Assembly (NCBI GenBank): GCA_016618385.1
Contig: JABFOP010000807.1
Coordinates: 216,216 to 280,215, forward strand
Source of the DNA: Nymphon striatum
Taxonomy: Eukaryota
Length of the DNA stretch: 64,000 bases
Reading direction: 5' to 3'
In this document: piece after piece, positions 14,295-63,985 of the stretch
Position numbering within the stretch: the stretch's first letter is position 1
How the letters are laid out: the number at the start of each line of letters is the position of its first letter
Position numbers and translations under genes: made by a program
The notes under the pieces: generated by a model
What the model saw: only the letters and a program-made list of their open reading frames with translations
Databases searched by the model: none
What the model was told of the DNA's origin: nothing

Positions 14295-15062
14295 ATGGCA
14301 AAAACACCAACTGAGCTTCAAGATATTCTTGACAAGATAAAATACCGGAGTGAGCTAGGGGGACTAAAAATGAACATCAAGAAAACAAAAGTTATGGTTG
14401 TCAGCCGTAATAAAGAGCAAATCAAAGTAAACATCAACATTGACAAACAACAGCTAGAACAAGTTTCTTCATTCACCTACCTTGGTCACCTCATCACAGA
14501 AGATGGGAAGTGCAAAAAGGAAATAAAGAAAAGAATAGAAATTGCTCGCTCAAAATTTAACAGCATTAAAAAGGTACTTTGCTCACAGGCCATCAGGAAG
14601 AGTACCCGAGTGAGACTATTAAAGGCATATTTATAGTCATCGTTACTGTATGCAAGTGAAACGTGGACATTAAATAAAATGACAATAACAAGACTCGAGG
14701 CATTTGAAATGTACATGTATCGAAGGATTCTCAAGATTCCTTGGACTGACAAAATAACTAACGAACAAGTCCTAGGTAGGATGAACACCACCAGAATAAT
14801 AATAGACACCATCAAATGTAGAAAGGCAAAGTACTTCGGTCATGTAATCAGGCATAATGATATGCAAAATATCATGATGTTTGCAAAGATCGAGGGCAAA
14901 CGACCTAGAGCTAGACCACGCCTTACATGGATGGATAACATCAAAGAATGGACTAATTGCAGCATCCATGAGTGCAGTGAGAGAGCGCAAGACCGGGATG
15001 TGTGGAGGGCAATGGCAGACAACCTACTACGGAGTAGACGTCAATGAACTGAACTGAAATAT
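14295..15062 (+). mobile_element. RTE-like LINE, 5'-truncated 3' portion (RT C-terminal domain), ending in a (GAACT)n-like tail
   Basis: ORFs 14295-14636 and 14679-15047 carry the motifs FTYLG..EDGKCKKEIKKRI..A and LLYASETWTL...FEMYMYRRILKIPWTDKITNEQVL...KYFGHVIRH...GKRPRARPRLTWMD. The element ends ..ctacggagtagacgtcaatgaactgaactgaaat. Confidence 0.7.
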
Positions 15063-27097: not shown

Positions 27098-27240
27098 ATG
27101 AATGTAAAAAGACGAGATGCCGATGATGCAAGTATATTCAGAATTCCCCCTTACCACTTTATCCATGTCTTGGATCAAACATCAAATGTCACACGTATCG
27201 AAACAGGACCAAAAACTTTTATTAGACAAGAAAATGAAAA
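27098..27240 (+). CDS. MVP: MVP exon 1 (start codon; [47 protein letters not shown]..)
   Basis: Clear match to the major vault protein N-terminus ([34 protein letters not shown] in vertebrates). Donor gtatat. Anchored to track ORF 27117-27653. Confidence 0.85.
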
Positions 27241-27316
27241 GTATATTTCTTCAGATTATTTTGACTGAAATTACCTATTTTACAATTATATTAACATACC
27301 TCATTATTTTATATAG

Positions 27317-27633
27317 AGTTTTGTTTGGTCCTGATAAAATGATTATTGTTCCTCCTCATCATTATTGTGTGATTCAAAATCCTGTAGTTCGAAATGATAA
27401 AAGTGAAATTCAACTTGACTTTGTCGGACAAGTCAAACTGCAACATGCCGAATTGGAAATTCGCCTACCTCAAGACCCTTTCCCTCTTTACCCTGGTGAA
27501 GTTTTATCAAAGCCAGTTTCACCATTAAAAGTTGTAGCTACAAATTCAGCTCTTAGGCTGCGGGCAATTAGAGATTTTACTGATGGTGCTACTTCTAGAG
27601 TCGCTGGAGATGAATGGTTGTTTGAAGGTCCAG
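27317..27633 (+). CDS. MVP: MVP exon 2 ([23 protein letters not shown]...[10 protein letters not shown])
   Basis: First vault repeat (MVP shoulder/repeat domain). Phase matches exon 1. Anchored to the same track ORF. Confidence 0.9.
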
Positions 27634-27745
27634 GTAAAAATCTTGTTTTATGATAATCACTCTGCAATAATAATAATATTAAAGAATAAAAATAACCATC
27701 AAGTAGTTGTTTCTGTATCTAATAACTATTTTTACGTTGATTTAG

Positions 27746-27972
27746 GTACGTACATTCCACGAAAAGAGGTTGAGTTCGTTGAAAAAATTCGAGCCACAAC
27801 TATTCTTGTCAATCAAGCCCTCAAGCTTCGTGCTCAAATGGAACTGCAAGATCGTGATGGCAAAACCAGAGTTACTGGTGAAGAGTGGCTTGTTCGTCGA
27901 ACTGGGGCATACCTTCCTAGTGCTTATGAAGAAGTTGTTACTGTTGTTGATGCTTATGTTTTGACTGAGAAG
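27746..27972 (+). CDS. MVP: MVP exon 3 ([21 protein letters not shown]...[33 protein letters not shown])
   Basis: Anchored to track ORF 27583-27996. Conserved TGEEWLV and AYLP motifs. Confidence 0.9.
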
Positions 27973-28377
27973 GTAGCAAATGAGACACTATATTAATTTT
28001 ATTTATTCTTATCTATGAAGTAGATCATTTTCTAATGATAAAGGAATACCTTTTTATTTAAGGAATAATTCCTAACACGCACCGTCATTTTGGTGGTCAA
28101 ATTATGTGAATTAAATGAAGCATTAGTTTACAAATCAAATCAGTCATATCATCAAAATTTAGTAAAATTCAATCTTAACTGACCTGAACAGACAAGAGGT
28201 TTCTCTGTTTACAGTTGCAAGGCACCTAATGTTAAGGCAAGGAGACAGAATCTAACAAAGCTTTGATTATAGATAATAACAGGAACTTATGAAATTATGT
28301 TGAAGAAATATTTATCCAGTAATGCACCAATAGAATATTTTCGGATATTGAAAATAATTGTGAATTCCTTTAGGTCA

Positions 28378-28735
28378 AAAAAAAAAAGGCTGTGTTTCCG
28401 GTAACGGTCTTGACAGACGGGAGGGTCGTTAGGTCGATTTTTTTTTTTTCTTTTTTTTTTTTTTTTTATTAACTAGAAATTATATAACCCACCAATCATA
28501 CCATTTACTTCATTTGAAGGGCTATCTACATTTGATTCAAAGAAATACAAGTGTTTAAATCATTTAATTTAGACAAACATCATAGAGAATTTTAGGAGGT
28601 AGTTTTGTGACGTTTTTTCTTTACCATTTCATGCATTTTACTATGTTTTTCCCGAATCATCATAAAAACATTTCAGTCGGCGGTAAAATTACACGGTCGG
28701 TCGGGTTACCGGAAACACAACATTTTTTTTTTTGG
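28378..28735. mobile_element. MITE family B, copy 2 (in MVP intron 3)
   Basis: Same GGCC(A)n..(T)nGGCC inverted termini and internal sequence as the copy at 17832-18202. Confidence 0.75.
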
Positions 28736-28799
28736 CCTTAATAGCAATGCTAATTTCTTTTTTCTGTTTTTTTAAAAGCTTTATTGCACTAAGCTCATG

Positions 28800-29260
28800 A
28801 AAATAGTTTATGGCAAGCTGGAGGCCGTGTCAATTCGACTGTATGCAGTGCTTCTCTGATAAAACTACAAACCATGGTGGGCAAGTTATATTTCTCACAC
28901 TGCAGCCAAGAATTTGCATATATATATATACCTCGCAGGCCATCCACTCACCCAAACCTTCGACCCTACTCCTGTTCAAATAGTGAGGTGTGTTCATTAA
29001 TGAGCAGAGGATCTCTTCTACACAGGACCTCCATAACGTCGTAACCATGGGACGGATAATTTTTTCTCTAAAACCAGCCTGCATCTAGCATAAGAGAGGA
29101 AAGCACGAGAATACACAACGTCAATTGTGGAAAAAAATTTTAGTCACAGAGACAGAAAGTGCCTGCAAGCGAAGCGAGCCGGGAGCTTGCCCCGGGGGTT
29201 TTTGTTTATAGCCACGCCCTTCTGTACACTATTAACAATGCCCATTTTTAGATCCGAGCA
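28800..29260. repeat. Interspersed repeat family R, copy 1 (a related copy lies at 42672-42830)
   Basis: About 110 bp shared between the copies (tggcaaSSTGGAGGCYGTRTCAATYC..TGCAGTGCTTCTCT..AAAACTACAARCCATGGTGGGC). The short minus-strand ORFs 28830-29084 and 42706-42891 are similar to each other (..PPW.VVL.EKHCIQ..). Confidence 0.5.
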
Positions 29261-29400
29261 CCTTTTTCAATTTAGGAAAATGCTGCTTGATTAGACTTTA
29301 TGATACATCTAAGTTAATTTTACAAGTTTTACAGATTTTGTTTCCTATTCTACCTTACTTCACAAATTCTCAAAATATTTTTTATCGATTTAAATTACAG

Positions 29401-29637
29401 GAAGCCATTCATGTTCGAGCTACCAGATCATTTACGGATATTCTTGGAAAATCTCATAAAAATGGCGAAGAATGGTTAGTATCATTGGCTGATACTGAGA
29501 CATACATACCTGATGTTTACGAAGAGGTTGTTGGAGTAATTAATATAACTACTCTCACCAACAGAGAATATTGTGTCATTCTGAATCCATGTGATGCTGG
29601 TGGAAAGCCTCAGTTAGGACAGAAAAAATTGGTTGAG
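29401..29637 (+). CDS. MVP: MVP exon 4 (EAIHVRATRSFTD...NGEEWLVSLADTETYIPDVYEEVVGVINITTL..YCVILNP..GKPQLGQKKLVE)
   Basis: Anchored to track ORF 29287-29664. Conserved YCVILDP and NQLGQKR motifs of MVP. Confidence 0.9.
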
Positions 29638-29865
29638 GTAAATTTAATGATCCAATATACCTAAAGTTACCTGTTAAATGCTTAACTTGACCATGAGGTC
29701 AAACAACTTCTTTTTTCTTTTTCTTATTTTATTTTTTATTTTTTTTTTTATGTGAAGATAATAGAATACTCACTCTTCTTTCATTAAATGTTTCAAAATG
29801 AAATGATGCTCTACTCTGTATAGATAGATATCAAAATCAAAATTATTTTTGTTTAAAGGGATACT

Positions 29866-30427
29866 TTATTCATCGAGTGTACGAAAAAAAAAATTCCAAT
29901 CCATAGTACATATATCAAACAAAAATTCCGGATTTTAAATAAATTTTTCTAGTTCATTTAATTTTTTTAAACGCATTTTAAAATCACCTACGTTGGAGCT
30001 GCCATTTTGATCAGTCACATGACATAGCGAGTGCTCAATCTTACACCGAGATGACTCTCGTTTATATAGATTTATCAAGTTGTGATGATTCTTTTAATTT
30101 TTATGCACATGGATTCGATTCGAGTCGAGGAGGAAGGTAGATGATGGTGATCAGCCTGGTGTTTCGTGAATTGTGTTTCTGTTATTTAGAGTAGACTTGT
30201 TTTCGGAAAAACCACTGATAGCAACACGTACCTATTCATTACTACTTGCTACCATCAGCACACGCTCCGTCACTAATGGCTGCACTCATTCAAATTAATG
30301 TTTTATCAATTAAAACAATAGAAAACGGTTGTATGAGTGAAAAAATTTCAGGATATGCTTAACTCGCCCTGTTCTATCATTTGAGCGATTTTTCAAAATG
30401 AGTAACAATGAGTGGAGTATCCCTTTA
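29866..30427. mobile_element. TIR element (about 560 bp) with AAAGGGATACT termini (in MVP intron 4)
   Basis: tttaaagggatactttattc..gagtggagtatccctttaatc seen directly. Confidence 0.4.
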
Positions 30428-30512
30428 ATCATAACCATTACTATGTAGAGCTAATTTTTTCGGTCATATTAAACTTGAGAATATAAAGTGTAGAATCTGA
30501 TACATATGTAAC

Positions 30513-30823
30513 CAGTGCTCACGCTGTCAGTCGACATTATCGCCATCTGCGATAATTTTATGAGTTTGGCGATTATTTTAAAGTATTAGCTACAAAAAAT
30601 GGCGATTATTTAATTTTTCTATAAAATATAAAAATTCAAAAAAATATCGACTAAAACACAAAATCTTTTGGTTACAGTCATATGGACCATTTTCCAAAGG
30701 TTATTATTTTTTTTATTTATCAAATTATACATGTTAATGCGACAACACGCAAACTTTGGCTAATTATTTTGTTTTCATGAAAAATATGTGGCTATTATTT
30801 ATAAACTGCCAGTGTGAGCACTG
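30513..30823. mobile_element. hAT-like MITE (311 bp) with terminal inverted repeat CAGTGCTCACRCTG, flanked by a TGTAAC direct repeat
   Basis: Termini cagtgctcacgctg and cagtgtgagcactg. The flanks read tgtaac|element|tgtaac (30507-30512 and 30824-30829). Confidence 0.55.
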
Positions 30824-30931
30824 TGTAACTAGTAATTGAGATTTGGGGGGGGGAGCAAAAGTTTTTTTAAATTTTTAATATCTTAAAGTAAATATTTTGG
30901 TTATTTTTTTTATTATTTTACTATTTTTTAG

Positions 30932-31063
30932 GGAGAAAAATCTTTTTTTTTGCTGCCTGGAGAAGAATTGGAACAAGGTATTAGATCTGTGTATGTTCTC
31001 AGTGAAACCGAGGGACTTATTTTAAGAGCATCACAAGCATTTAATGATGATAATGTAACATCA
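30932..31063 (+). CDS. MVP: MVP exon 5 ([44 protein letters not shown])
   Basis: Anchored to track ORF 30950-31369. GEKSFFL.PGE.LEQGI is the conserved MVP block. Confidence 0.9.
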
Positions 31064-31144
31064 GTAAGTATTATTGTCTGGATTTTATTTATTTATCTAT
31101 TTACTCATTTTAAAATTAATATTTTACCTCTCCTGTTTTTACAG

Positions 31145-31294
31145 AAAGTAAGAAGGTCACCTGGTGATACATGGATGATTAGAGGGCCTTGTGACTACAT
31201 CCCACCTATTGAAGTTGAGGTGTTATCTCAAAGAGATGCTATTCCATTAGATGATACTGAAGGTATCTATGTTCAAGATGTCAAAAGTGGAAAG
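31145..31294 (+). CDS. MVP: MVP exon 6 ([50 protein letters not shown]), followed by a GC donor
   Basis: Conserved WLIRGP..Y.P...[26 protein letters not shown]. The exon must end after GGAAAG to keep frame with exon 7, and the following bases are GCAAGC, indicating a GC-AG intron. Confidence 0.8.
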
Positions 31295-31446
31295 GCAAGC
31301 TTATACTATTATTATACTGTTTTTAAACCTTATTTTAGCCATTACATATTTTCAAAAAGTGTTTGCTAAGACTATTACTTTTTATTCAACTTACTATATA
31401 CATTTTTTAAATACATCATTAATATTATCCAATTCATTTTTAACAG

Positions 31447-31688
31447 ATAAGAGCAGTATGTGGTGAGACCTACATGCTTACTCAAGATGAAGAGTTATGG
31501 TCAAAGCCCCTTCCACCAGTAGTTGAAGAACTGCTTCAGCAAAATAGGGACCCTTTGAGTGATAGAGGTACTCGGAAAATTACTCCTTCTAGTGAAACAG
31601 AAAAGCGAGATAAAACTTATGTGGTGACATTCCGTGTTCCCCACAATGCAGTTGTTCAAATTTATGATTACAAAGAAAAAAAAGCAAG
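31447..31688 (+). CDS. MVP: MVP exon 7 (IRAVCGETYMLTQDEELWSKPLPPVVEELL...VPHNAVVQIYDYKEKKAR)
   Basis: Anchored to track ORF 31474-31737. Conserved YMLTQDE.LWEKELP and VPHNAAVQVYDY.EKRAR. Confidence 0.9.
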
Positions 31689-31902
31689 GTATTATTTTTT
31701 TCTATTAATAATTAATAATATGTGGAAATCTGAATGATATAACTATAAAATTTTGGGACAGAATCAATTTAAAATTTTGGAGACATGTTCATGTTTCTGT
31801 TTGTCATAATAAATGTTTTGGTGTATGAAGAAATTTAAGAAAAGATTGTAGCGACTAATATGTTTTGTGAATCTATCGTGGAAAAGTTTGATCTTGTAAA
31901 GG

Positions 31903-32513
31903 TAAGAGGTAAGAGGGCGCGGTGGCTCAGTGGTTAAGATCGCTATTCTGGGCCTGAAGAACCCAGGTTTGAATCTGACTCCAACCCCACCACTTTTTCA
32001 CCGTTTACGTTGTGTATTATCGTGCTCTCCTCTCTAATATCATACGTAGGCCGATTTTAGAGAGAAAATACTCCGTCCCTCGGATAGGACGTTAAATGGA
32101 GGTCCCGTGTAAAGGAGAGTCACACCCTATGCACGTTAAAGAACACACTTCACTATTTGAATAAAGAGTAGGGTGATCCCGGTGAAGTGTAGCACCTGCG
32201 AGAATGTGAAGGTCAGGTCAGGTCCCACCTGCTACTGGTACCATGTAAACCAGTACTACCTGTCTCATGGTCGGCGACTAAACCGGCTCCCCCACTTGGT
32301 TACCTTGGTGACCTAGTGAGGAGGGTGTGTGGTCACCCCGCAGGACTAAAAACAAGACCTGTCAAAGGGCAGATGAGCTCCTAGCGAGCCAACGGCCATC
32401 CATATCCGGAGAGGGGTTGGAAACCACCGGATTACTTCCACTGAAACACAATGATGAATACTCATCAAAGTGCCCCAACGGCCAACAGGCTACGGGAGTG
32501 AACTGAACTGACT
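31903..32513 (+). mobile_element. tRNA-derived SINE (about 610 bp) with a 3' tail ..CTACGGGAGTGAACTGAACTGAC, in MVP intron 7
   Basis: The 5' head gggcgcggtggctcagtggttaagatcgct...ggtttgaatc carries A-box and B-box-like motifs. The 3' end is shared with the RTE-like LINE at 15047-15062. Flanked by direct repeats of about 55 bp at 31848-31902 and 32514-32568. Confidence 0.65.
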
Positions 32514-32937
32514 GTAGCGACTAATATGTTTTGTGAATCTGTCGTGGAAAAGTTTGTTCTTGTAAAGACGTTTTGTTACTTGAAGAATACCTAAAAGATT
32601 GAAAAATTCTACTTTGTTTTATCAAACATTCGTTATTCACTTTACCTTTACTGAAATATGTTTATAAATTTCTTAGTTACCCATCAAACCTGCTTAAACA
32701 AGGCGAGTTTGTTTCCTTATCATGAATTAATTGATTACGTTCCCCACCAATTTTGAAGTGTGTGAAACTCGCATGCATGTCAAACAGATGCCTATTTTTT
32801 TTTTTGTATGTATGTATGTAGGGATGCCAGGTCCAAATAGCATTGTATGTACAAAAAAGTAGTAAGTTCACATTCATTGGCATCCCTACATAGTCTTTTT
32901 ATTTAGAGTAAATTTGTTTGCGTAATTTTTCTTGTTT

Positions 32938-33677
32938 TATAATAGAGTGCCAAAGTGTGACGTCACGTTTCAGGCCTGGCAAGACATTATCATCCCGGCT
33001 GTTTTCTCATAGGAGATTTTTACTTGATCTTTCTTTCGTTATTTCCACCGAAATTTCGCACAGTTTTGTTGGTAATAGTTTATTTTTGTTATTTTTTGTT
33101 ATTTTTGAATACGAAAATGTGTCATTTTATTTCTTTTTCATTCGTTGTTTGCCTCGCAAACTTCAAATAGCTAAGTAAGTCGTCTGAGAGACCGGCTATA
33201 TTATAGTATATACAAGTATGGGTCAGTGTTTCGCACCTGACTGACATAAAATCACATAAGGCATTTTACAGAAATAAGAAATTGACATTTTTCTATAGAA
33301 TACTAATTAACCACAATAAAAAAACATTGTAATTAATCATAAATGAGAACAAAAATATTTGATTGATGTTTGCAGTCAGGAGCGAAACACTGATCCATAC
33401 TTGACGAGAGACCGGCTGCATACTAGCTGTTCTCTCGAACCACTTAATTAGCTATTTGAAGTTTGCGAGGCAAACAACAAATGAAAAAGCAATAAAATGA
33501 CACATTTTCGTATTCAAAAATAACAAAAATAAACTATTACCAACAAAACTGTGCGAAATTTCGGTGGAAATAACGAAAGAAAGATCAACTAAAAATCTCC
33601 TATGAGAAAACAGCCGGGATGAAAATTTGATGCGGTCCAGGCCTGAAACGTGACATCAGCACTTTGCCACTCTATTA
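32938..33677. mobile_element. Foldback element family F1, copy 1 (about 740 bp near-perfect palindrome; arms of about 300 bp) in MVP intron 7
   Basis: tagagtgccaaagtgtgacgtcacgtttcaggcctgg... mirrored by ...ccaggcctgaaacgtgacatcagcactttgccactcta. The second copy lies at 47238-47903. Confidence 0.75.
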
Positions 33678-33741
33678 GTATCAACTTTTGCAATGTGAAC
33701 ATGTGAACATTTTCTTATTCTCATCTCCGTTTCTCTCTTAG

Positions 33742-33939
33742 GTTTATATTTGGTCCTGATTTGGTAATGTTGGGTCCAAGTGAGCAGTTTACTAAACTCA
33801 GCTTATCTGGAGGAAAGCCAAAGAGACCAAATGTTATCAAGGCTCTAGCCTTGTTGTTGGGACCAGATTTCTGCACAGATATTGTTATTGTTGAAACTGC
33901 TGATCATGCTAGGCTTCAATTGCAATTGTCTTATAACTG
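33742..33939 (+). CDS. MVP: MVP exon 8 ([66 protein letters not shown])
   Basis: Anchored to track ORF 33761-33943. Near-identical to the vertebrate block [30 protein letters not shown]. Confidence 0.9.
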
Positions 33940-34036
33940 GTAATTAATGTTTTCTTCATTTACCAATCTTTTCAGCCTTAGATCTCAAGTGTCAAGATGT
34001 AAATTATCCTTATAAACAACATATTTGAATCATCAG

Positions 34037-34178
34037 GTACTTTGAAGTTAAAGATCACAATGCAGAAACTGCTGCTAAATTATTCAGTGTACCAGATTTT
34101 ATTGGTGATGCATGCAAAGCAATTGCATCCCGTATCAGAGGCGCTGTTGCTAGTGTTCAATTTGATGACTTTCACAAA
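34037..34178 (+). CDS. MVP: MVP exon 9 ([47 protein letters not shown])
   Basis: Matches [34 protein letters not shown]. Acceptor cag, donor gtttgt; coordinates read from the sequence. Confidence 0.85.
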
Positions 34179-34265
34179 GTTTGTTCCCTAACATTTATTT
34201 TATTTTCTCTATTTTCATTACATTAATGAAGATATATATATATTTATTATATTCTGTTTTCCCAG

Positions 34266-34477
34266 AATTCTGCCAAAATTATCCGTGCTTCTGTTTTTGG
34301 ATACGATGAAAGTTCCAAGATCCGATCATCTTTTACCTTTAAACAAAATGGTTTAACCATCACAAGCGTTGATATCCAATCTGTCGAACCTGTTGATCAA
34401 AGAACCAGAGACTCTTTGCAAAAATCTGTGCAGCTTGCAATTGAAATCACTACAAATTCTCAGGAAGCAGCTGCAAA
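34266..34477 (+). CDS. MVP: MVP exon 10 ([18 protein letters not shown]...[37 protein letters not shown])
   Basis: Matches [38 protein letters not shown]. Phase-2 donor gtaatt. Confidence 0.85.
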
Positions 34478-34706
34478 GTAATTACCATCAATGTCTTAAT
34501 TTAGCATGTGCTTGAATGTTTAAAAAAAAGTAGAGTGTGATGTTTTAGTGTAATGTGAGGGGAACGATAATTCCTAAAGATTCACTTTTTATGGTTGGAT
34601 TCAAAGTTAGCAAAACATTTATGAGAATTGTAAATCTGTTTTTTAAGTAATTTTGATACTTTTTCATCATCAGTAGCCTCATGTTTTATCATCAAATACT
34701 TTTCAG

Positions 34707-34950
34707 GCATGAAGCAGATCGAATTGAACAAGAAGCAAAAGGTAGACTTGAACGTCAGAAAATTACTGATGAGGTTGAAGCAGAAAGAGCACGCAAACAA
34801 CTGTTGGAGTTGCAGGCAGCTTCCGCGGCTGTTGAAAGTTGTGGTCAGGCAACAGCTGAAGCTTCAAGTCGAGCCAGTGCTGCCAAAATTGAAGGTGAAG
34901 CAGCTGTGGCCCAAGCTAGATTAAGAGCAGAAGCAGCTGTTATTGAGGCT
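34707..34950 (+). CDS. MVP: MVP exon 11 ([44 protein letters not shown]...[12 protein letters not shown]), cap-helix region
   Basis: Anchored to track ORF 34681-35004. Matches [37 protein letters not shown]. Confidence 0.9.
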
Positions 34951-35055
34951 GTGAGTTACTTTTTGTTTTCCATTGAAATTCTTCACTTTTCTATTATTTT
35001 ATGAAATTTTCATAAAATGTATTCTTTTTTTTTTTTTTTATTCTTATGAATATAG

Positions 35056-35244
35056 GAATCTGAATTGAATAGGCTGACCAATGCTCGTGAAGCTGAAATA
35101 AAATATTTAAAGGATCAGAATGAGCTTGAAGTTACCAAGAGTACAGAGTTAATGGATTTGGAAGTAAAAAAATTTGAAAAAATGGTCAGTGCTCTTGGAT
35201 CTGATACCATCAAAGCAATGGCAATTGCTGGTCCAGAGATGCAG
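35056..35244 (+). CDS. MVP: MVP exon 12 (ESELNRLTNAREAEIKYLKDQNELEV...IKAMAIAGPEMQ)
   Basis: Anchored to track ORF 35065-35286. Matches IRDLAVAGPEMQ. Confidence 0.9.
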
Positions 35245-35699
35245 GTAAAATATATTTTCCATACTAAATGTGTAACCTTTGATTAGTTTTTAATTATCAA
35301 ATATTATGAATGCTATAGAAATTAAGCATGCATTATTCAAATTATTTATTTGTAATATACCATAAAAAGTAAGCCAAACTTCAACAACTGAAATTTAATT
35401 TTACAAACGAATTTTAAAACTTTAAATATATTTTAATAATAATATTTTTTGAATATAAAATGTGCATATACTTACTTTTTAATTTTAATGACTTTCGTCT
35501 TTTATTTCCCGTTCAAAAAAGCAGATGATATTATGATTGAAAACAAAATTAAAAGTTGTAATTTCTATAAAAATGACGTTTAGTAAAGAAAAATCTTCAC
35601 ATGATAAAAGGTTTGCAGGAATCCAAGAACTACAGCAGCCGTCAATTTGATGAGAATTTCTGGAAAAACATTGGACCTGAAGCGGATTAGATAAATTGC

Positions 35700-43781: not shown

Positions 43782-44033
43782 TTATTCATCCACTGCTTTC
43801 TTGCAGTGGCACTTGAGTGACCCATATACTGTCACGTCTAGTGGCTGCAGTTTGTAGAATTTATTGGGAGGGAAATTAATAATGGACAGTCTAATTGGCC
43901 TTGCAATTTCAATTATGTCAATAATAAGGTGGCTGTCATCATTGTCAATGAAAAGAATAACAGGGTTTATCATAGAACAATCTATCTGTTTTATAAAGTG
44001 CTCGAGGACACGGGGAAATAGTTTGCTATTCAT
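43782..44033 (-). mobile_element. pogo/Tigger-like (DDE_1) transposase fragment
   Basis: Track ORF 43782-44033 (minus): ..ILFIDNDDSHL......INFPPNKFYKLQPLDVTVYGSLK.. matches the pogo DDE region (LLLDN..SH...FLPPNTTS.LQPLDQGVI..FK). Confidence 0.5.
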
Positions 44034-48942: not shown

Positions 48943-49074
48943 TCAGGACTTTTTCGGTGGCAGGAAAGAATTTGAAGAACTGGGATCAAAATTTTTCTTG
49001 GAATTGTTCATGGTGACACTACAAACATCACGAACAATCATTTCAGCAACCTGCCATGCTACATCCTCATCCTT
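48943..49074 (-). CDS. AKAP10: AKAP10 (D-AKAP2) terminal exon: KDEDVAWQVAEMIVRDVCSV..., the PKA-anchoring amphipathic helix, then stop
   Basis: Minus-strand acceptor ttttag, phase 0 after the exon at 54774-54826. Matches the vertebrate D-AKAP2 A-kinase-binding domain EELAWKIAKMIVSDIMQQ. Stop TGA at 48943-48945 on the minus strand. Confidence 0.75.
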   Translation of the reverse strand, partial: KDEDVAWQVAEMIVRDVCSVTMNNSKKNFDPSSSNSFLPPKKS

Positions 49075-49839
49075 CTAAAAAATAAAATGAAAAAGTTCAT
49101 GAATTAAATTTTTAAGGTTGAAGCAAAATTACATCACTGATATTTTCATTAAAGGGACCCTAAGGTACTTTTATGAATGTGATGTGAAGAAATGGGGAAG
49201 ATTTACAAAAGTTAGCAGTTTAGTGACAACGGCGAAGGACAGAGTAAAGTGGAAATCTGTTGTGCATGCGACCCTTCAAATGGAGGATGCAACTTAGATA
49301 GATATAGAAGGTACTTTTAGACTTAAAGTTATGTTATGTGAAAAAATCGCTGATTTTAAAATTATTTTTTCACACCGAAAACAAGATTTTTATATCAATT
49401 ATCACGTTGGTCAGATGACGTCACTTGTCTCAGTCGAGAAAGTTTCTGGTAGCCTACAGTGTAGGACATCGTTCGATCTATCAAAACAACAAATTAAACA
49501 ACAGAAGAATGGCTTTGCCCTTTCAATTTAAGCCTGAATTTACTGAAAATGAAAACACAGATAGATTAAATGATTCAGAAGAAGATGAATCTGAAGATAA
49601 AGAAAATAACAGAGGTAGATTAACGGAAGAAGTTTCATCGTGGTGCACATGTGGATGCTGTGAAAATATGGACACAGAAGAAATGTGCGTAGGTTATAAA
49701 AAGTTTGGATCCCTTTCGCATTTAACGAGAGGTAAGGGAGTTATCATTATTTATTTGTATTTAGTAAATAACTTTAATATAATAATTTGGCGATTCTACA
49801 CTTTTGTGTTCCCTAAACTTTTTGTTAAGCCACTCGAAC

Positions 49840-50090
49840 TGCATGAACTTCCTATCAGATGCAGGCTGGTTCGGCAGAGAAAGTACTCTGTCCCTTGGAT
49901 AGAATGTCAATGGGGTTCCTGCAAAAAATGTTCTATAGGATTTATAGGACCCGAGTATCCTATAGAACAGTCCTATGGGATTCTATATGATTTTATAGAG
50001 TTTTAGGACCAGAGTTCTGTAGAACATTTTTTGCAGGGACCCCATTCACATTCTATCCAAGGGACAGAGTACTTTCTCTGCTGAACCAGC
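49840..50090. mobile_element. Foldback element (about 250 bp palindrome)
   Basis: cagagaaagtactctgtcccttggatagaatgt..tgcaaaaaatgttctatagga mirrored by ..cagaacattttttgcaggg..acattctatccaagggacagagtactttctctg. Confidence 0.6.
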
Positions 50091-50258
50091 CTGTATCTGA
50101 TAGGAAGCCACAATAACATACAGCGTAAAATATGAGCGATATTCAGAAGTGGGAAGATATTTATTCATTCGGCCACCCATGCCTTCGACATAAGGGTACA
50201 TTTTACACAAATTAGCTGTACATGAGTGAAGTTAAAATTTTAAAATTCTGTTTAACTT

Positions 50259-50450
50259 TGTAACGACAGTGATCGACGACATCCGGCCGCCTTCTTTTTC
50301 CTCCCCCGTATGTCCCCGAGCCATACGGGGAATTTATTTACATAAATCATTTTGTTTAATCACCTGTATATATTGCTTCTTTCATTCAAATAAATTCATT
50401 CTATTTTAGTTAACACAAGGAGTCTCTTTCCTTTCTCTCCTTGCGTTACA
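50259..50450 (+). repeat. 5' LTR (192 bp)
   Basis: TG..CA termini. Identical by eye to 54460-54651. Confidence 0.9.
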
Positions 50451-51361
50451 CTGGTGACCCTGACGTGATTATGGACACTGATACCACCATCAAAGCCGAA
50501 GACACTTCTCCGCCGGCCGTTGTCCATGCCGCTGCAGTCCGCCTACCGACATTTGCACCGAATGAGACCCTCACCTGGTTCCGCCGTGCCGAAACTCAGT
50601 TTCGACTGAAACATGTCTCCGTTTCATCTACCATGTCCGACTACGTTCTGGAGGCACTACCAGAAAGCGTATTCCGGCGTATTTCTCCATGGTTGGACGA
50701 GCAGCCTGACATTATTCCATACAAGACGTTGAAAATACACCTCCTGGACGTGTATTCTCTTTCTCCATCTGACCGTGCCAGACGCATTCTTGCCATGCCA
50801 GGACTACCACTTGGAGACCGTACTGCTACCCAAGTTTGGGAGGAGATTACTTCTCTGTGCCGCCTTCCAAGACTAGACGACGACGATACCTCTCATTCTG
50901 TTCTTGATTTAAAGAAGGAAGTTTGGCTGCAATGTTTGCCATGACCACATCCGCTCCCTTTTGCACGACTCTACCACCACGTCAATGGACAAGCTCTCAA
51001 AAAAAGCGGATGCTCTGATTGACGCTCACCGTATGGCACACGGTGCTCCATCCGTGTCATCAATCCAGATCAGTTCTTTTCCTCCAACTTCTTTTCCTTG
51101 CAACCAGTTCTTTTCCTCCAACTCCACATAGTTTCCTCTGTATGTTCGTGTTCTGTGCTCAAACATTCCGCTAAAGATGATGATTCTTCCGAGGTTAATG
51201 CTACACAACAACGCCCTGCTCAGTTCCAGAAACGTTTTCAACCATTTGGAAAATTAACTGCCTCCGGTATCTGCACTTATCATTTGCATTTCGGTAAACG
51301 TGCACGATCTTGCGTCGCCGGCTGCTCATGGTCAAAAAACGGGCCAAGCGGCCGCTCTTAG
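50441..51361 (+). CDS. gag region of the LTR element, split over three frames (50441-50944 in frame A; about 50940-51128 in frame B; 51098-51361 in frame A, containing CTYHLHFGKRARSC, a zinc-knuckle-like motif)
   Basis: Track ORFs 50441-50944 and 51098-51361 share a frame but are separated by stops. The intervening segment is open in another frame (..DKLSKKADALIDAHRMAHGAPSVSS..). This suggests a +1/-1 pair of frameshifts, or recoding. Confidence 0.5.
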
Positions 51362-54300
51362 TGGACGCGGCCGCCCAGTGTTCTGTTATACCGATCACCC
51401 GAACTTCTGCTACACATCCGGATGCTCCTACTACCACCCACAGTGCCTCCTGCTTTCCCCATCCGGGGTTTTCCATTAAAGACGAGATTTCTCAAAAAGA
51501 ATTTCTAGTCGACACCGGCGCTTTCAAATCTATTTTTCCGGTCTCTGTGCACGAGAAGGTGAACATCTCTACATGCGGTTTGGACTTAGTCGCCGCCAAC
51601 GGCACCGCTATCCGGACCCATGGGGAACGTAACATTCATCTTCGTTTCCATGGACGCAATTACTTTTGGACCTTCATTCTCGCTGACGTTTCGCGCCCAC
51701 TCCTAGGCGCTGATTTCCTTTCACACCACCACCTCATGGTCGATGTTGCCGGCCGTAAACTAATCGATACAGACTCTTTCCGTTCGTTTCCACTCTCCAA
51801 TCGCAGTGCATCTGTTATAGGCGAAATCTCCGCATGCAAACCACCGGCTGGTCGTTATACCGGCCTCGTGACCGAATTTGCTGACGTTTTCAAGCCGGAA
51901 TTGCATCTCTCGTCAAGTGTTGCAGCTAAACACGGCGTATACCACCACATCGAGACTACCGGACCGCCCGTCTACTCTAAGTTTCGCCGCCTTCGCCCTG
52001 ACCGACTGCAAGCTGCCAAAGCCGCTTTTGCCGAAATGGTACGTATGGGTATATGCTCGAAAGCCGCTAGTCCTTGGGCCACTCCTTTGCTCTTAGTCCA
52101 AAAACCCGATGGTACTTGGCGCCCTTGCGGGGACTACCGACGTCTCAATATGGTTACCGTACCGGATCATTACCCTATGCCCAATATTGCCGATCTAACC
52201 GCGTGCATCGGTAATACGCGTATTTTTTCTAAATTAGACCTGTTAAAAGGATATTTCCAAGTTCCGGTATATCCTGACGATGTGCCGAAGACCGCCATTA
52301 TAACACCTTTCGGCTCCTATGTTTTCCACTATTCCACCTTTGGCCTGCGTAACAGCGGTGCCACCTTTCAGCGGATGATGGACCTCATTTTTGGAGAACT
52401 TTCCTTCTGTATTGTATATGTGGACGATGTCTTGATTTTCTCTAAAAATCACAACGACCACATGGAACATCTTCGAACAATTCTCCTGCTTCTCAGGAAC
52501 AATGGTCTCGTTGTCCGTCCTGACAAGTGTACCTTTGGTGCTACTCAGGTTGAATTTCTCGGTTACGATATCTCGGCTAGCGGTATCCGCCCTCGCAAGC
52601 AAAAAGTAGATGCGATCATCAATTTCCCTCGCCCGACATCTATTCGCGGTGTTCAAGAATTTCTTGGTATCTTGAATTTTTACCATCGTTTCATCCCACA
52701 CGCTGCTGACATTTTTGACCCATTGTACGAGACTACCGCCCATAAATCGAAAGATCTGTTGTGGGGTCCACCTCAGGACAAAGCTTTTGAGGCCGCTAAG
52801 GTTTCCATCGTTTCTGCCGCTACTCTTGCTTATCCGCTCCCTAACCTCCCTTTATACCTCACTACTGATGCGAGCAATATTGCTTTGGGTGCTGTCGTTG
52901 AGCAAGAAGTTGGGGGTCAGCGTAGACCACTTGCTTTCTTTAGCCGTAAGCTCCGGCCGCCAGAACGCCGTTACAGCACGTTCGACCGGGAGTTACTCGC
53001 TGTCCACTTATCCGTCCGTCATTTTCGCCACTTGCTGGACGGGATGGCTTATACCATCTGTACCGACCACAAGCCGTTAGTCTCTGCCCTGACCAAGCCC
53101 ACTGATGCTTGGTCCGATCGCCAGCGTCGGCAACTGTCTGCAATTGCAGAAACCTCCTGCACCATTCAACACTTGCCTGGTAAAAACAACCCTGTAGCAG
53201 ACTCTCTATCACGCATAGAAATTGCTTCCGTCCTAATGGGCGTTGATTATTCGGCCCTATCAGCCGAACAGGAGCGCGACTCCCAAATCGCCGCATTCAA
53301 ATCCACTCCCGGGAGCCTGAAGTTGAAATCTGTCCCGTTTGGCGACACCCACGTCCTCTGCGATATAAGCACCGGCCGTCCACGCCCAATCGTGCCTACA
53401 TGTTTCCGCCGCCTGATTTTCGACGTCATTCACGGTCTTGCCCACCCATCCATTCGTAAGACCACCAAGTTGATGACTGATAAATTTGTGTGGACCTCCA
53501 TCCGGAAGGACTCTAGCACATGGTCCCGCTGCTGCGTACAGTGTCAACGGAGTAAAATCCACCGTCATACTAAATCTATGATTGGCCGTTTTCCCCCTAC
53601 AACCCGGAGATTTTCGCACATCCATGTCGATATCGTCGGACCTCTACCACCTTCCGAAGGTTTCCGGTATTTATTCACTATCGTTGACCGTTCTACACGA
53701 TGGCTAGAAGCTGTGCCTATGGAAGACGCCACGACTACCTCTTGCGTCGCTGCATTACTCCATACCTGGATATCCCGTTTCGGCGTTCCCGACGATATCA
53801 CCTCCGACCGCGGCTCTGTTTTCACGTCCGAATTGTGGTCTACTTTGTCTCGGTTACTAGGAACTTCTCTTCACCACACTACCAGCTATCATCCTCAGGC
53901 CAATGGCATGGTTGAAAGATCACACCGTACGCTAAAGACTGCTCTTGTTGCCCGCTGTTCCGGCGATAGATGGGTTACTCATCTGCCATGGATCTTATTG
54001 GGTCTTCGCACAACGCCCATAGATGTACTTTCGTATTCCTCTGCCGAGATGGTATATGGTGAACCTCTGGTCGTTCCCGGTGAATTTTTCCCCACTCAGC
54101 TCTCGCATGATTGCAACATCGCACGACTGAGGGAAATTGCCGGTCGCTTTGCTCCGTCACGACCGACTCGTGACCATCAACGACATTCCTACGTCCCAAA
54201 AGACCTACGCTCGTGCGATTTCGTTTTCATCCGACACGACGCCTCTAAGCCGCCACTGTCGCCGGCATACAAAGGCCCGTACCGCGTACTCGAACGCCGT

Positions 54301-54447
54301 GACAAATCATTTTATATACAGCTCGGTGTAAAACAGGACTGGGTCTCAATTGACCGTTTAAAGCCGGCCTACATTTCGACGTCCGAATTGGACGACGGGA
54401 CCTATACCCGCTCCGGTCGTCTTTCTCGTCCCGCGACTCGTTTTTAA
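51310..54447 (+). CDS. pol polyprotein of the LTR element (protease DTGA, RT YVDDVLIFS, RNase H, integrase HH-CC zinc finger and DDE core)
   Basis: The 1045-aa ORF contains the motifs LVDTGAFKSIF, LDLLKGYFQVPV, YVDDVLIFS, ..TDASNIALGAVV.. and an integrase core. It overlaps the last gag ORF by about 50 nt in a different frame (a frameshift site). Confidence 0.9.
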   Translation: MRRRLLMVKKRAKRPLLVDAAAQCSVIPITRTSATHPDAPTTTHSASCFPHPGFSIKDEISQKEFLVDTGAFKSIFPVSVHEKVNISTCGLDLVAANGTAIRTHGERNIHLRFHGRNYFWTFILADVSRPLLGADFLSHHHLMVDVAGRKLIDTDSFRSFPLSNRSASVIGEISACKPPAGRYTGLVTEFADVFKPELHLSSSVAAKHGVYHHIETTGPPVYSKFRRLRPDRLQAAKAAFAEMVRMGICSKAASPWATPLLLVQKPDGTWRPCGDYRRLNMVTVPDHYPMPNIADLTACIGNTRIFSKLDLLKGYFQVPVYPDDVPKTAIITPFGSYVFHYSTFGLRNSGATFQRMMDLIFGELSFCIVYVDDVLIFSKNHNDHMEHLRTILLLLRNNGLVVRPDKCTFGATQVEFLGYDISASGIRPRKQKVDAIINFPRPTSIRGVQEFLGILNFYHRFIPHAADIFDPLYETTAHKSKDLLWGPPQDKAFEAAKVSIVSAATLAYPLPNLPLYLTTDASNIALGAVVEQEVGGQRRPLAFFSRKLRPPERRYSTFDRELLAVHLSVRHFRHLLDGMAYTICTDHKPLVSALTKPTDAWSDRQRRQLSAIAETSCTIQHLPGKNNPVADSLSRIEIASVLMGVDYSALSAEQERDSQIAAFKSTPGSLKLKSVPFGDTHVLCDISTGRPRPIVPTCFRRLIFDVIHGLAHPSIRKTTKLMTDKFVWTSIRKDSSTWSRCCVQCQRSKIHRHTKSMIGRFPPTTRRFSHIHVDIVGPLPPSEGFRYLFTIVDRSTRWLEAVPMEDATTTSCVAALLHTWISRFGVPDDITSDRGSVFTSELWSTLSRLLGTSLHHTTSYHPQANGMVERSHRTLKTALVARCSGDRWVTHLPWILLGLRTTPIDVLSYSSAEMVYGEPLVVPGEFFPTQLSHDCNIARLREIAGRFAPSRPTRDHQRHSYVPKDLRSCDFVFIRHDASKPPLSPAYKGPYRVLERRDKSFYIQLGVKQDWVSIDRLKPAYISTSELDDGTYTRSGRLSRPATRF

Positions 54448-54459
54448 CAGGGGAGTACC

Positions 54460-54651
54460 TGTAACGACAGTGATCGACGACATCCGGCCGCCTTCTTTTT
54501 CCTCCCCCGTATGTCCCCGAGCCATACGGGGAATTTATTTACATAAATCATTTTGTTTAATCACCTGTATATATTGCTTCTTTCATTCAAATAAATTCAT
54601 TCTATTTTAGTTAACACAAGGAGTCTCTTTCCTTTCTCTCCTTGCGTTACA
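54460..54651 (+). repeat. 3' LTR (192 bp)
   Basis: Identical by eye to the 5' LTR. The preceding polypurine tract is aacaggggag. Confidence 0.9.
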
Positions 54652-54773
54652 ACTTCACATGAGGTCTATAGCCAACACATAATCAACATCAAAATTCAGT
54701 TTAAGTTATATCTTTGAGAACAAGAAAAATGTAAAAAAAATTACTTAAACAATATTTAAAAATCAAAACCTAC

Positions 54774-54826
54774 TTCATGTTGATCCTTATTAACAAATCT
54801 TTTCACAGCTTTCGAAATTTTTGATT
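54774..54826 (-). CDS. AKAP10: AKAP10 penultimate exon (ESKISKAVKRFVNKDQHE)
   Basis: Minus-strand acceptor ttatttcag and donor gaa|gtaggt. Matches SQAMKKWVQGNTDE. Its splice phase joins both the exon at 55155-55228 and the terminal exon. Confidence 0.6.
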
Positions 54827-59789: not shown

Positions 59790-60060
59790 GTGCAGTGTGT
59801 AAGTGAAAAAATGAGTGAATACCGACTGCGGTGGCTGGGGCATGTGCAAAGGATGGATGTATGTAACCCAGTGAAGGATGCATGGATCAGGGACGTGAGT
59901 GGTCAAAGACCGAGAGAAAGGCCGCGTTTGAGATGGAGGGATGTAGTTACAAAGGACATGAACGAGAGAGGGTTGTGTATAAATGATGCGTACGATAAAG
60001 TCCTTTGGCGTGCAGGCATAAGATCCCCTGACCCCATTCCGGTGGGATAAAGGGTGGATG
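59790..60060 (+). mobile_element. LINE 3'-terminal RT fragment (CR1/L2/RTE-like)
   Basis: Track ORF 59790-60050: YRLRWLGHVQRM...GQRPRERPRLRWRDVVTKDM is the typical non-LTR RT C-terminus. It lies antisense within an AKAP10 intron. Confidence 0.55.
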
Positions 60061-61158: not shown

Positions 61159-61560
61159 CTAGAGTTCTATGGTGAATGAAAGACAAGGATGGCATTCATT
61201 GAGTGTATGTAAGAAACTGTTGGCCTTTTCCAGGTTGGGTAAGATGATGAGGGTATTATCCACATAGCATCTATAAAAAGATGGGATTTGGTTATCAGAC
61301 TTCAGTTTGTTTTCAACATGATACACGAATACATTGGCAATAAGTGGACCAAATGGAGATCTCATAGCAAAGCCATCTATTTGTTCGAATAACTTGTTTG
61401 TTGAATTGAAAAAGTTGATTGGTAGTGGCTTTTCTGAGCAATTGCTGAAGTCATCTTTGGATAGTTGCAGATTGTATTTTTTATTAAACCAAGCGTCGCC
61501 AGGGCCTGATTCAGGCCGATTTTGATACCGTTTAAACGGGTTTGGGCGCCCAAACTCCAA
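61159..61560 (-). mobile_element. Penelope-like element (or related) RT fragment
   Basis: Track ORF 61159-61560 (minus): ..GFAMRSPFGPLIANVFVYHVE...RCYVDNTLIILPN matches the G.AMGSPLSP.LAN.FM pattern and the YVDD-box region. Confidence 0.45.
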
Positions 61561-63535
61561 AGTAATTTTTTTTTAATCTGAAAAAAAAAAATTCAAAAAA
61601 AAAATTTCTATGCTAAACAAATTGCTGAGAAATGGTGTTCTGTGAAAGAGAGACGAATCTTCTCCAATTAAGAACAGACTTCAGTCGTGAAATTATGATA
61701 ATGATCATCAGAAATTATGAATAAAGTAAGTAAACATGCAAAACAAAGTCTTCATAAAGCATAAAATGACAATATGGGCGGGCAGGCAGTAAACTGTTTT
61801 ATTCTCATAAAAGTGTAATCTTTTTAGTAATAAAGACATACAAGTTTGAAAATTTTAAAATTATGGCTACATGTGACCTGTGGGTTACCTGTATCAAAAA
61901 ATGTATTTTTATATTATCTTGATATAAAGTTAACATGATCAATCAAAGACGACCTTGCATATTTAAAAAAAATTATAATTGTGATTTGATCATGTTTAAC
62001 TTTTGTCAAGTCCAGAAGAATGTTAGGTTAGTTTTCAGTCTCTGATTGGTGTAACATGTGGTCACTCTAATTGCTTATTACTTTTCCCCATGGTGCTCCA
62101 GAATGGCTTCATTTTATCACACAAAATCTTTTTTTTTTCTCTAAAAAACAGGCATAAGTTCCCTCGGCTGAAGCTTTGCATTTGATTTATCGTCACATGA
62201 TGGTGCCCAAACGTTTTCCCTGGATTTGGCCCTGGTTGCTGAAAGCTATATCCACTAATATTTTGATGGTTTCTTCTATTGGATCATTCGTGAATAAAGA
62301 CTTGACATTATACGAAATCAACACATCTGTGGATTGAATATGGGTGTGAATATGCGTAGCTCTTCGAAGAAGTTGAAAATATCATTGATGCAGAATTCGT
62401 TGACCGATAATGATTTGAGCTTGTCGTCCAACCATTTTGCGAGATTGGTCTCATGGATAATTCATTCTTGTGGGTTCATAACTAGAAAGAAAACGATTGG
62501 CTTTAGTAGAAATTCTGTCATTATTTCAGACATGATTTTTTTTCAAACATATAAACAATCTATTTTTTCGAAAAACAGAACTCAAACAAAATTTAATTGC
62601 ATGTCTCCATCTAACAGAATGTTTAACATAGTCCAGAAAATTACACTTTCTTCAAATATGTTGTCCAATGGATTGACCAACGGTCATGTGTTTGATGTTG
62701 AGGACCTATAATTGAAGTTTGTATTACACGAGACATTTTTTAATAAAATTTTACTTTTACATTTCAGTTGCCTTAGTTATTTTCTAGTAATTTTTAAAAA
62801 AGAGAACCACAAAGTTTCAAGATTGCTGTTTTGTTTTCAGTCTTGGTGGCTTACAACAAAAGAATTAAAAACATAACACACATTGTGCTAAGAATAAATA
62901 TTATATGTATTGCAAGGTTTGCCAAGATGCAAAATTGAAAAATAAATTTGCAATGGCAGGTACTTGTAACAAATGTTAACGTTAGTGTTATATGGGGAGA
63001 TAAACAATCAGAATCGTAGGAAATTATATTATTTTCACTTTGAAAATGCGTCAAAATTTGCATTCTTGATCGTGGCATTGATCAAGCTTTTCAATGAAGA
63101 GTGGTAAATTTATCATCTATTTAATCCAAGTATAGTTTCATTCAAATGGAGGGAATTATATATGTTTGCATAACTTTCAAACACAGCAGCTAGATCTTAC
63201 AGATATGTACACACAGTTGTCTGCATGTTTTATCTGGAAAAAAAAGGATCAAATTTACAATGTCTGCTGTAAAATATTTACATATCAGCAAAGAACTTAT
63301 TTTCAATTAACAGGTTTTGATTGCAAAAAATTCCTGATTTGGTCCTTTAATGAAAGCACTGGTTCAACTATAATCTTCTAAAAATAATATCAATCTACTA
63401 AAAGAGATATTAAAATACATCCTCTACCCATAAAGTTTAAAAAATAAAAGTTAAAAAAATATAGATTGCATTTCCAAAGAAAGACAGATCACAAATAAAG
63501 AAAAGTTATTTCAGAAAAAGAAAAGCAAAGCATAC

Positions 63536-63985
63536 TTTCTCCTAGTTTTTCTGAAAGGTCTATTTCATCTTTGGATGACACCTTGTTGATTATATTTATC
63601 GAAGTCTCTGTTCTATTACAATCATTAGATTTATCAACTATAGATGAGCTTGATGATTGAAAAATATCATTTTTTTTGGATATGTCAGGAACGGCATTTC
63701 CAACACTAGAATCACATATTTTAGATGGATGACACACAGGAACTTCTTTATCATTGTTTAATTTTTTGTGACTAGCTAAAGTCTGAGAACGGCTAACAGT
63801 AGATGCTAGAAAACTTTCAGCATCAAGCCAAAATTTGATGAATCTATCAGCTTTACAAGAGTCTAAATATTGTATGAAGTATGCCAAAGCACTGTGATCA
63901 TTAACTAATTCCTGAATAGATTTTGATAGGCGTGACTTTGTCCGTGAGAGAATGGAAGCAACTTTTTCATTATAGGAAGACATGG
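63536..63985 (-). CDS. AKAP10: AKAP10 large 5' exon, first RGS domain (MSSYNEKV..LSKSIQELVNDHSALAYFIQYLDSCKADRFIKFWLDAESF...KLGE); ATG at 63981-63983 immediately after an acceptor
   Basis: Track ORF 63489-63983 (minus) matches LSKTLEQVLHDTIVLPYFIQFMELRRMEHLVKFWLEAESF. Donor a|gtatgc at 63535. Its splice phase joins the exon at 60858-60956 (..KLGE-S-IQKD). Confidence 0.8.

Follow-up and report, generated by a model that had tools for sequence, protein, structure and literature searches.

A very young CsRn1-like LTR retrotransposon with a twice-broken gag in the last intron of a putative AKAP10 gene of Nymphon striatum

How does a retrotransposon with identical ends and an open pol come to carry a gag that is broken in two places, and could such a copy still move by its own means? 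The question is raised by a 4393-bp long terminal repeat (LTR) retrotransposon at positions 50259-54651 (+ strand) of a 64,000-nucleotide (nt) stretch of the Nymphon striatum genome (assembly GCA_016618385.1, contig JABFOP010000807.1, positions 216,216 to 280,215), located in the last intron of a putative AKAP10 gene. The whole 64,000-nt stretch is referred to as the window, and all coordinates are positions within it. Our analyses indicate that the element is very probably a complete and recent Ty3/gypsy copy of the CsRn1 clade with two real frameshift lesions in gag, which would make it a non-autonomous passenger.

The borders of the element were sharply defined. The 5' LTR (50259-50450, + strand, 192 bp, with TGT...ACA ends) and the 3' LTR (54460-54651, + strand, 192 bp) have the same sequence; a repeat search and direct string comparison showed identity at 192 of 192 positions, and this identity breaks off exactly at both borders. 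The sequence ACTT was found on both sides as a target-site duplication (TSD), on the left at 50255-50258, where the flank TTTAACTT runs directly into the LTR start TGTAACG, and on the right at 54652-54655, directly after the 3' LTR. The pre-insertion site can be reconstructed as ...TTTAACTT/CACATGAGG..., with the slash marking the point of insertion. Since the LTRs are identical and the TSD is perfect, the insertion is recent. The first 30 nt of the LTR occurred twice in the window, once in each LTR, with 0 occurrences expected by chance, and neither solo LTRs nor further copies were found in the window when up to 3 mismatches to this 30-nt start were allowed. The 5' LTR contains a TATA-like TATATAT at 50367 and an AATAAA at 50389, and its U3/R/U5 borders are putative. 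Each LTR also holds a perfect hairpin with a 9-bp stem (CCCCGTATG-N9-CATACGGGG; 50304-50330 and 54505-54531), presumably within U3.

The signals for reverse transcription were also in place. The primer-binding site (PBS) TGGTGACCCTGACGTGAT is located at 50452-50469 (+ strand), 1 base past the 5' LTR, and agrees at 17 of 18 positions with the tRNA-Trp PBS of avian retroviruses (TGGTGACCCCGACGTGAT), which makes it a putative tRNA-Trp PBS. The single mismatch would be a G-U pair, or else the host tRNA differs at this position; no host tRNA genes were found in the window. Two relatives of the element, L001 (a Tara Oceans metagenome contig) and L002 (ENA assembly ERZ26052287), also begin their PBS with TGGTGACCCC, again 1 base past the LTR, and share the start TGGTGACCC with the element. 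The polypurine tract (PPT) core AGGGGAG (54449-54455, + strand) follows the pol stop (54445-54447) and precedes the 3' LTR by 4 nt, and the sequences at the same position in the relatives are ACAGGGGAGG and ACGGGGGAGG. An Rfam search returned nothing relevant in or near the element. The cis-acting parts, namely the LTRs, the tRNA-Trp-like PBS, the PPT and the gag-pol -1 frameshift signal described below, are intact, and the element is a very recently integrated, structurally complete LTR retrotransposon.

The pol open reading frame (ORF; 51310-54447, + strand, frame 1, which is -1 relative to gag) encodes 1045 amino acids. It contains, all on the + strand, a protease (PR; 51499-51726, DTGA at 51511), a reverse transcriptase (RT; 52096-52572, YVDD at 52417), an RNase H (52762-53130, TDAS at 52864), an integrase (IN) zinc domain with its HHCC motif (53392-53559), an IN core (53605-53895) and a GPY motif (YKGPYRV at 54274, pol residue 989). 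The Pfam matches on pol followed the same order: gag-asp_proteas (weak), RVT_1 (2e-31), RT_RNaseH_2 (9e-29, with RT_RNaseH matching the same region), Integrase_H2C2 (2e-11) and rve (9e-14). In an alignment with 70 homologues, all of which agree in 183 columns, pol departs at 2 of these, and the homologues themselves, scored by leaving each one out, depart at 0-4. Because so few invariant columns differ, within the range of the homologues, pol appears to have been under purifying selection until very recently, and nothing in its sequence suggests decay. These comparisons bear out a large part of the initial annotation, which had proposed two identical 192-bp LTRs (no differences on exact alignment), a 4-bp ACTT TSD (present on both sides on exact comparison) and an intact PBS, PPT and 1045-amino-acid pol, on which sequence positions, Pfam matches and motifs agree.

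The element has the features of a Ty3/gypsy retrotransposon: TG...CA LTRs with a TSD, the order PR-RT-RNase H-IN with an H2C2 integrase, and a PBS and PPT. Within this superfamily, the CsRn1 clade has been defined by a tRNA-Trp PBS, a Gag motif of the type CX2HX9CX3C (CHCC) instead of CCHC and conservation of Gag over its full length, together with a 4-bp TSD, a GPY/F motif, the lack of a chromodomain or env, and ORFs that are fused or overlap by a -1 shift (PMC2582038). In the element we found a CX2HX9CX3C motif in Gag (C-TY-H-LHFGKRARS-C-VAG-C, 51272-51325), the 4-bp TSD, the GPY motif and the -1 gag-pol overlap. There is no room for env, with the pol stop 12 nt from the 3' LTR, and no chromodomain was matched in pol by Pfam. 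Gag is conserved along its whole length, with a DUF7041 match and with nodes 11-258 of a 263-node Gag profile covered over three frames. By these features, rather than by RT phylogeny, the element fits a Ty3/gypsy LTR retrotransposon of the CsRn1 clade. Its closest pol match in the database search has 62% identity, and the family, which is absent from the databases searched, is new within an already described clade.

The initial annotation had regarded the domain order and a supposed C-x2-H-x5-G-x5-C motif as resembling BEL/Pao as much as Gypsy. The PR-RT-RH-IN order does occur in BEL/Pao, but Ty3/gypsy shares it, and the spacing of the motif had been miscounted, the actual one being C-x2-H-x9-C-x3-C. 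The Pfam profile search of pol gave the Ty3/gypsy set, with RT_RNaseH_2 and Integrase_H2C2 matched, and no BEL/Pao family: none of Peptidase_A17, DUF1758, DUF1759 and DUF5641 was found at E <= 0.1. The same gypsy-type domain set was present in all 120 best homologues listed, and the CHCC motif, like the tRNA-Trp-like PBS, is a trait of the CsRn1 clade. An assignment to BEL/Pao, or to a position intermediate with it, can be set aside almost completely.

The gag gene was found to be split. To place its pieces, a Gag profile was built from 9 homologous Gags and searched against the three forward frames of 50441-51440. The profile matched in frame 2 with nodes 11-156 (up to 50941, 188.6 bits), then in frame 0 with nodes 156-193 (approximately 50940-51053, 24.7 bits, i-E = 7.5e-10), and then again in frame 2 with nodes 194-258 (51155-51346, 37.4 bits). 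Together, these matches tile the profile in order, without gap or overlap, and this perfect succession is why we regard both breaks as real; the middle piece reads as genuine coding sequence in another frame. The first segment (50471-50944, + strand, frame 2) comprises 157 amino acids from its ATG, carries DUF7041 (PF23055, E = 1e-11), has 60% identity to the gag of L002, and ends at a premature TGA (50942-50944). The second (50943-51131, + strand, frame 0) is open to 51128 with a TAG at 51129-51131, and is homologous to other Gags up to 51053 (DHIRSLLHDSTTTSMDKLSKKADALIDAHRMAHGAPS), from where a low-complexity linker extends to the TAG. The third (51155-51361, + strand, frame 2) is open from 51019 and ends at the gag stop TAG (51359-51361). 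The earlier description of a gag in three frames was thus sound, and re-reading did not yield a single continuous frame, as the profile places the pieces in three; its coordinates had to be corrected, as gag starts with the ATG at 50471, and position 50441, given before as the start, is a TTG inside the LTR.

The two breaks differ in kind. Break 1 (50939-50945, + strand, CCA TGA C, in the context TTG CCA TGA CCA CAT) is a 1-nt insertion relative to the homologues that creates the TGA at 50942-50944. With T50942 removed, the sequence reads ...VWLQCLP-DH-IRSLLHD... and aligns without gaps to LP-SH-VREQLHN in L001, LP-SC-VRVLLHN in L002 and LP-TA-IRAALHD in a third homologue (P0032). Break 2 shifts the frame by a net -1/+2 somewhere in 51054-51128 (+ strand). 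It falls in a linker of 101 nt (51054-51154, + strand; length 3n+2) that is left unaligned between profile nodes 193 and 194, and this linker contains a tandem array with units of 18, 16 and 18 nt (51071-51122, + strand). The linker of L002 carries 7 in-frame 27-nt tandem repeats with VRRTPDVTP units (L002 5613-5871). Because of the array in the element and the in-frame repeats in L002, the gag linker is considered slippage-prone, and the part between the Gag core and the CHCC motif seems to be a hotspot of repeat expansion in the clade. Gain or loss of whole array units was rejected as the cause of break 2, as 16, 34 and 52 nt each leave a remainder of 1 on division by 3, whereas a remainder of 2 is needed. 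An intron was rejected as well: splicing of a 59-nt GT...AG segment (51073-51131) would bring break 2 back into frame, but this is held to be coincidental because it leaves break 1 unexplained and because the sequence from one break to the other is coding and homologous to other Gags. The two shifts together restore the frame but not translation.

Errors of sequencing or assembly in an element that is in fact intact would produce the same picture, and break 2 does lie in T-rich low-complexity repeats with T4 runs, where consensus errors of long reads concentrate. Break 1 (GCCATGACC), however, is outside any homopolymer, and the explanation calls for two independent errors in a span of 190 nt. 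No frame error was found in the 3135-nt pol ORF or in 406 codons of the host major vault protein (MVP) exons in the same window, and because of this the local indel error rate must be very low. We consider consensus errors an unlikely explanation of the breaks.

What the breaks would mean for the element depends on how Pol is produced. A putative -1 frameshift signal was located at the end of gag (51334-51375, + strand), consisting of the slippery heptamer A AAA AAC (51334-51340), a 7-nt spacer and a hairpin (51348-51375). The heptamer reads TCA AAA AAC in the gag frame, which is the X XXY YYZ phase, and the hairpin GCGGCCGC-N11-GCGGCCGC has a minimum free energy of -24.7 kcal/mol (z = -2.1). 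A -1 slip at A AAA AAC gives ...SKKRAKRPLLVD..., the start of the pol ORF, and -1 frameshifting would accordingly operate at the gag-pol junction. In-phase A AAA AAC followed by a GC-rich stem was also found in L001 (905-960) and L002 (6010-6060). The cassette of A AAA AAC, 7-nt spacer and GCGGCCGC-like GC palindrome stem is thus kept in three elements that have only ~60% protein identity.

In this clade, the sole source of Pol would be a Gag-Pol fusion that arises when ribosomes slip by -1 as they reach the very end of gag. An autonomous copy would need a gag that is uninterrupted up to the frameshift site, and here gag is interrupted by the TGA at 50942-50944 and by the second shift within 51054-51128. 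Ribosomes translating this copy would halt at the TGA at 50942, 390 nt before the slippery site, and the gag frame contains no ATG between 51019 and 51334. The predicted product is only a 157-amino-acid N-terminal fragment of Gag, and neither full Gag nor Gag-Pol would be made. Since pol is reachable only through gag, and gag stops at this TGA, pol would be stranded, and its intactness is a sign of youth and not of function. An independent start of Pol at the pol-frame ATG at 51328, by reinitiation after the 157-codon ORF, appears unlikely. These translational consequences, and the dependence of this copy on helpers, are inferred.

The initial annotation had offered an unusual double recoding event as an alternative to mobilisation in trans. 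Under such a programme, a +1 shift at CCA UGA C, with the U skipped as in antizyme and RF2, would be followed by a -1 shift in the linker, yielding full Gag at a low level. Several observations are consistent with this: skipping U50942 gives a Gag exactly collinear with its homologues, the +1 shift would fall on a stop codon whose UGA-C context is weak, a modest stem (z = -1.95) begins 3 nt beyond break 1, and the two shifts compensate each other. However, this fold was not significant, with 9 of 200 shuffles as good, and no X XXY YYZ heptamer was found in any phase of the break-2 zone. In all relatives examined, gag is uninterrupted at both places; a continuous gag was found in the nineteen relatives checked, drawn from L001 and L002, the fused Gag-Pol proteins (eight) and a very active sister family (10 of 10 copies). 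The real recoding site of the element is canonical and conserved (A AAA AAC with a hairpin), unlike the two breaks, and three successive low-efficiency events would leave almost no Gag-Pol. Double recoding is therefore very improbable. A broader version, in which the gag shifts are a feature of the family, either as a throttling double recoding or with the 157-amino-acid DUF7041 Gag fragment acting as a copy-number or restriction factor in a helper-borne element, is likewise highly doubtful.

The most probable interpretation thus remains a recent copy with two real lesions. RNA of a gag-broken copy could still be packaged, reverse-transcribed and integrated by the proteins of intact siblings, and a broken gag is an ordinary fate for such elements. 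Whether the lesions arose before or after integration is roughly an even call. If they arose before, a gag-defective RNA would have been mobilised in trans by intact siblings, and the element would have arrived dead with regenerated LTRs. This possibility, which we would put somewhat short of an even chance, is consistent with identical LTRs and a perfect TSD standing alongside two indels, as the LTRs are regenerated in each cycle and their 384 nt need not have dodged mutation. It also has precedents in Tos17 and BARE2 (PMC3977881) and in a PwRn1 copy with near-identical LTRs and a corrupted interior (PMC2582038). Against it, no helper or sibling copy was found in the window, in the pol search, by exact look-ups or in metagenome and viral scans, all ten young copies in the sister family have an intact gag, and the rough likelihood ratio relative to decay after integration is ~1.

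In the opposite order of events, an intact autonomous copy integrated and then gained both indels in place, through slippage in the array and a 1-base insertion. We regard this as possible too, again without giving it the better half of the probability. Break 2 lies in the slippage-prone 18/16/18-nt array, pol is undegraded, and the rough likelihood of two indels in 4 kb together with 384 nt of unchanged LTR is ~0.1 at the best-fitting age, an estimate that assumes indels to be ~15% of mutations. On the other side, none of the expected substitutions can have struck the LTRs, and both indels must have landed in gag, which makes up 22% of the internal region (chance ~0.05 for the location alone).

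Several points weigh against the interpretation of the element as a passenger with ordinary lesions. No other copy of the family was retrieved: exact-protein look-ups with the gag fragment and with pol returned no recorded match, and pattern scans over break 1 and the LTR/PBS junction gave 0 matches in metagenome and viral contigs, so that the timing of the lesions and the existence of helpers are conjectural. The young copies of the one sister family that was sampled all have an intact gag (10/10). In addition, both indels are in gag, the frame is restored and pol is unhurt, a pattern that is mildly non-random and beyond simple neutral decay.

Comparison with known systems places the element more closely. 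It shares the CHCC Gag, the 4-bp TSD and the GPY/F motif with the CsRn1 clade, represented by CsRn1 of Clonorchis sinensis, PwRn1 of Paragonimus westermani and AgCR-1 to -14 of Anopheles gambiae. Boudicca, Gulliver and Kabuki also belong to this clade. The element differs from these members in its host, in its pol, 62% identical to the nearest database sequence, in the two frameshifts of its gag, and in the length of its LTRs, which measure 192 bp compared with 381 bp in PwRn1. Nine AgCR elements have gag and pol overlapping by a -1 frameshift, as in the element here (PMC2582038). The PwRn1 copy in clone lambda-Pw-13-2 has a 4-bp TSD and LTRs with 99.7% identity, and its interior is corrupted by indels and stops (PMC2582038); in contrast, the copy studied here has 100% identical LTRs, only two lesions, both in gag, and a fully open pol. 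Tos17 of rice and BARE2 of barley have kept pol without a functional Gag and are mobile or recently so, with the Gag presumed to come from a partner (PMC3977881). Unlike the element, these are plant Copia elements in which the loss of gag is fixed in the family and pol is translatable alone, whereas here the defect was seen in a single copy and pol would be stranded behind a broken gag.

The nearest relatives (L001-L012) have the same architecture, with 58-62% identity in pol and ~60% in the N-terminal part of Gag, but in all of them gag is one continuous ORF of 241-314 amino acids. L001 (pol 62% identity) has a gag of 263 amino acids and L002 (pol 61% identity) one of 314 amino acids, each with pol overlapping in the -1 frame. 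The sister family L003-L012, which is also from ERZ26052287 and has 58% pol identity, was represented by the same 1022-amino-acid pol and 241-amino-acid gag in 88 collection blocks; 24 contigs with pol were read, and ten places are shown. These observations suggest that the sister family expanded in a very recent burst in an AT-rich metazoan, and in L009 a DM-domain gene is found near the copy.

The base composition of the element departs from its surroundings, with a GC content of 49.7% compared with 31.5% in the flanks. The same was observed across the group: the element, L001, L002 (4817-9357) and L003 (1821-5569) have 46-55% GC, and their host flanks 30-33%. Horizontal transfer was considered as a reason for the GC contrast and rejected, because the relatives contrast likewise with their own hosts, which makes it a trait of the clade. 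The sense strand was C-rich in the element and its relatives (GC skew -0.15 to -0.21), and the AT skew was -0.12 (T-rich) for the element in the window versus +0.09 to +0.16 for the relatives.

The host gene is supported, on short matches, as an AKAP10 (D-AKAP2) orthologue; proteins of this type have RGS-homology domains and, after these, an amphipathic PKA-binding helix at the C-terminus. The insertion lies between its last two coding exons, as had been proposed initially and as AG/GT splice borders, a terminal TGA and the D-AKAP2 match confirm. The penultimate coding exon (54774-54826, - strand) is bordered as TTTCAG/exon/GTAGGT, and the last coding exon (48943-49074, - strand) begins at an AG border and contains the presumed PKA-binding helix DEDVAWQVAEMIVRDV and the terminal TGA. 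The joined exons read ...RFVNKDQHE/KDEDVAWQVAEMIVRDV..., and the best PDB match of this peptide was the D-AKAP2 AKB peptide 3IM4_C (E = 0.017), in an alignment that spans the exon junction, with the helix EDVAWQVAEMIVRDV aligned to EELAWKIAKMIVSDV of 3IM4_C. An upstream exon on the same strand (63489-63983) gave an RGS match below the Pfam cutoff (22.8 versus 23.9 bits), and no PDZ-binding TKL tail was found in the joined exons. The last intron (49075-54773) is now 5699 nt long, compared with 1302 nt before the insertion. The element is antisense to AKAP10, and in the sense of the gene it carries three AATAAA motifs (50333, 53670 and 54534).

The same intron contains further repeats. At a distance of 150 nt upstream of the insertion is a 91-nt inverted repeat, with arms at 49848-49938 and 50017-50107 that are 95% complementary and separated by a 78-nt loop; its Rfam match to mir-581 is far below threshold (28.9 versus 100 bits), and it is probably a foldback repeat or one like a miniature inverted-repeat transposable element. 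A 193-amino-acid ORF (49425-50006, + strand) contains the Cys-rich CTCGCCENMDTEEMC, and its 3' part overlaps the inverted repeat. Its P2RX7_C-like Pfam match is also sub-threshold (E = 0.0016, 18.8 versus 23.5 bits), and the ORF may be what is left of another mobile element. Elsewhere in the window, the MVP exons (approximately 27100-35300, + strand) adjoin AKAP10, and their 406 collated amino acids have 57-64% identity to the MVPs of sea urchin, land snail, coral, flatworm and spider, with 64% the highest identity in the database. Decayed mobile-element fragments were observed at 1578-1919 (- strand), 14295-15047 (+), 15853-16966 (-), 43782-44033 (-), 59790-60050 (+) and 61159-61560 (-), comprising pieces of non-LTR-type RT (RVT_1, with GRPR...W C-terminal motifs) and one DDE_1 transposase fragment; AKAP10 introns hold at least two of these fragments.

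The broken gag is in itself an ordinary observation, and the value of the locus lies mainly in annotation, as it delimits well a very young family of the CsRn1 clade with unusually short LTRs of 192 bp. The gag-pol -1 signal of the clade, A AAA AAC with a GC hairpin, is kept across diverged families. For the host, the 4.4-kb antisense insertion more than quadruples the last AKAP10 intron, just upstream of the exon for the PKA-binding helix, and is probably polymorphic. If sibling copies are active, the family could be a marker or a mutagen in the species.

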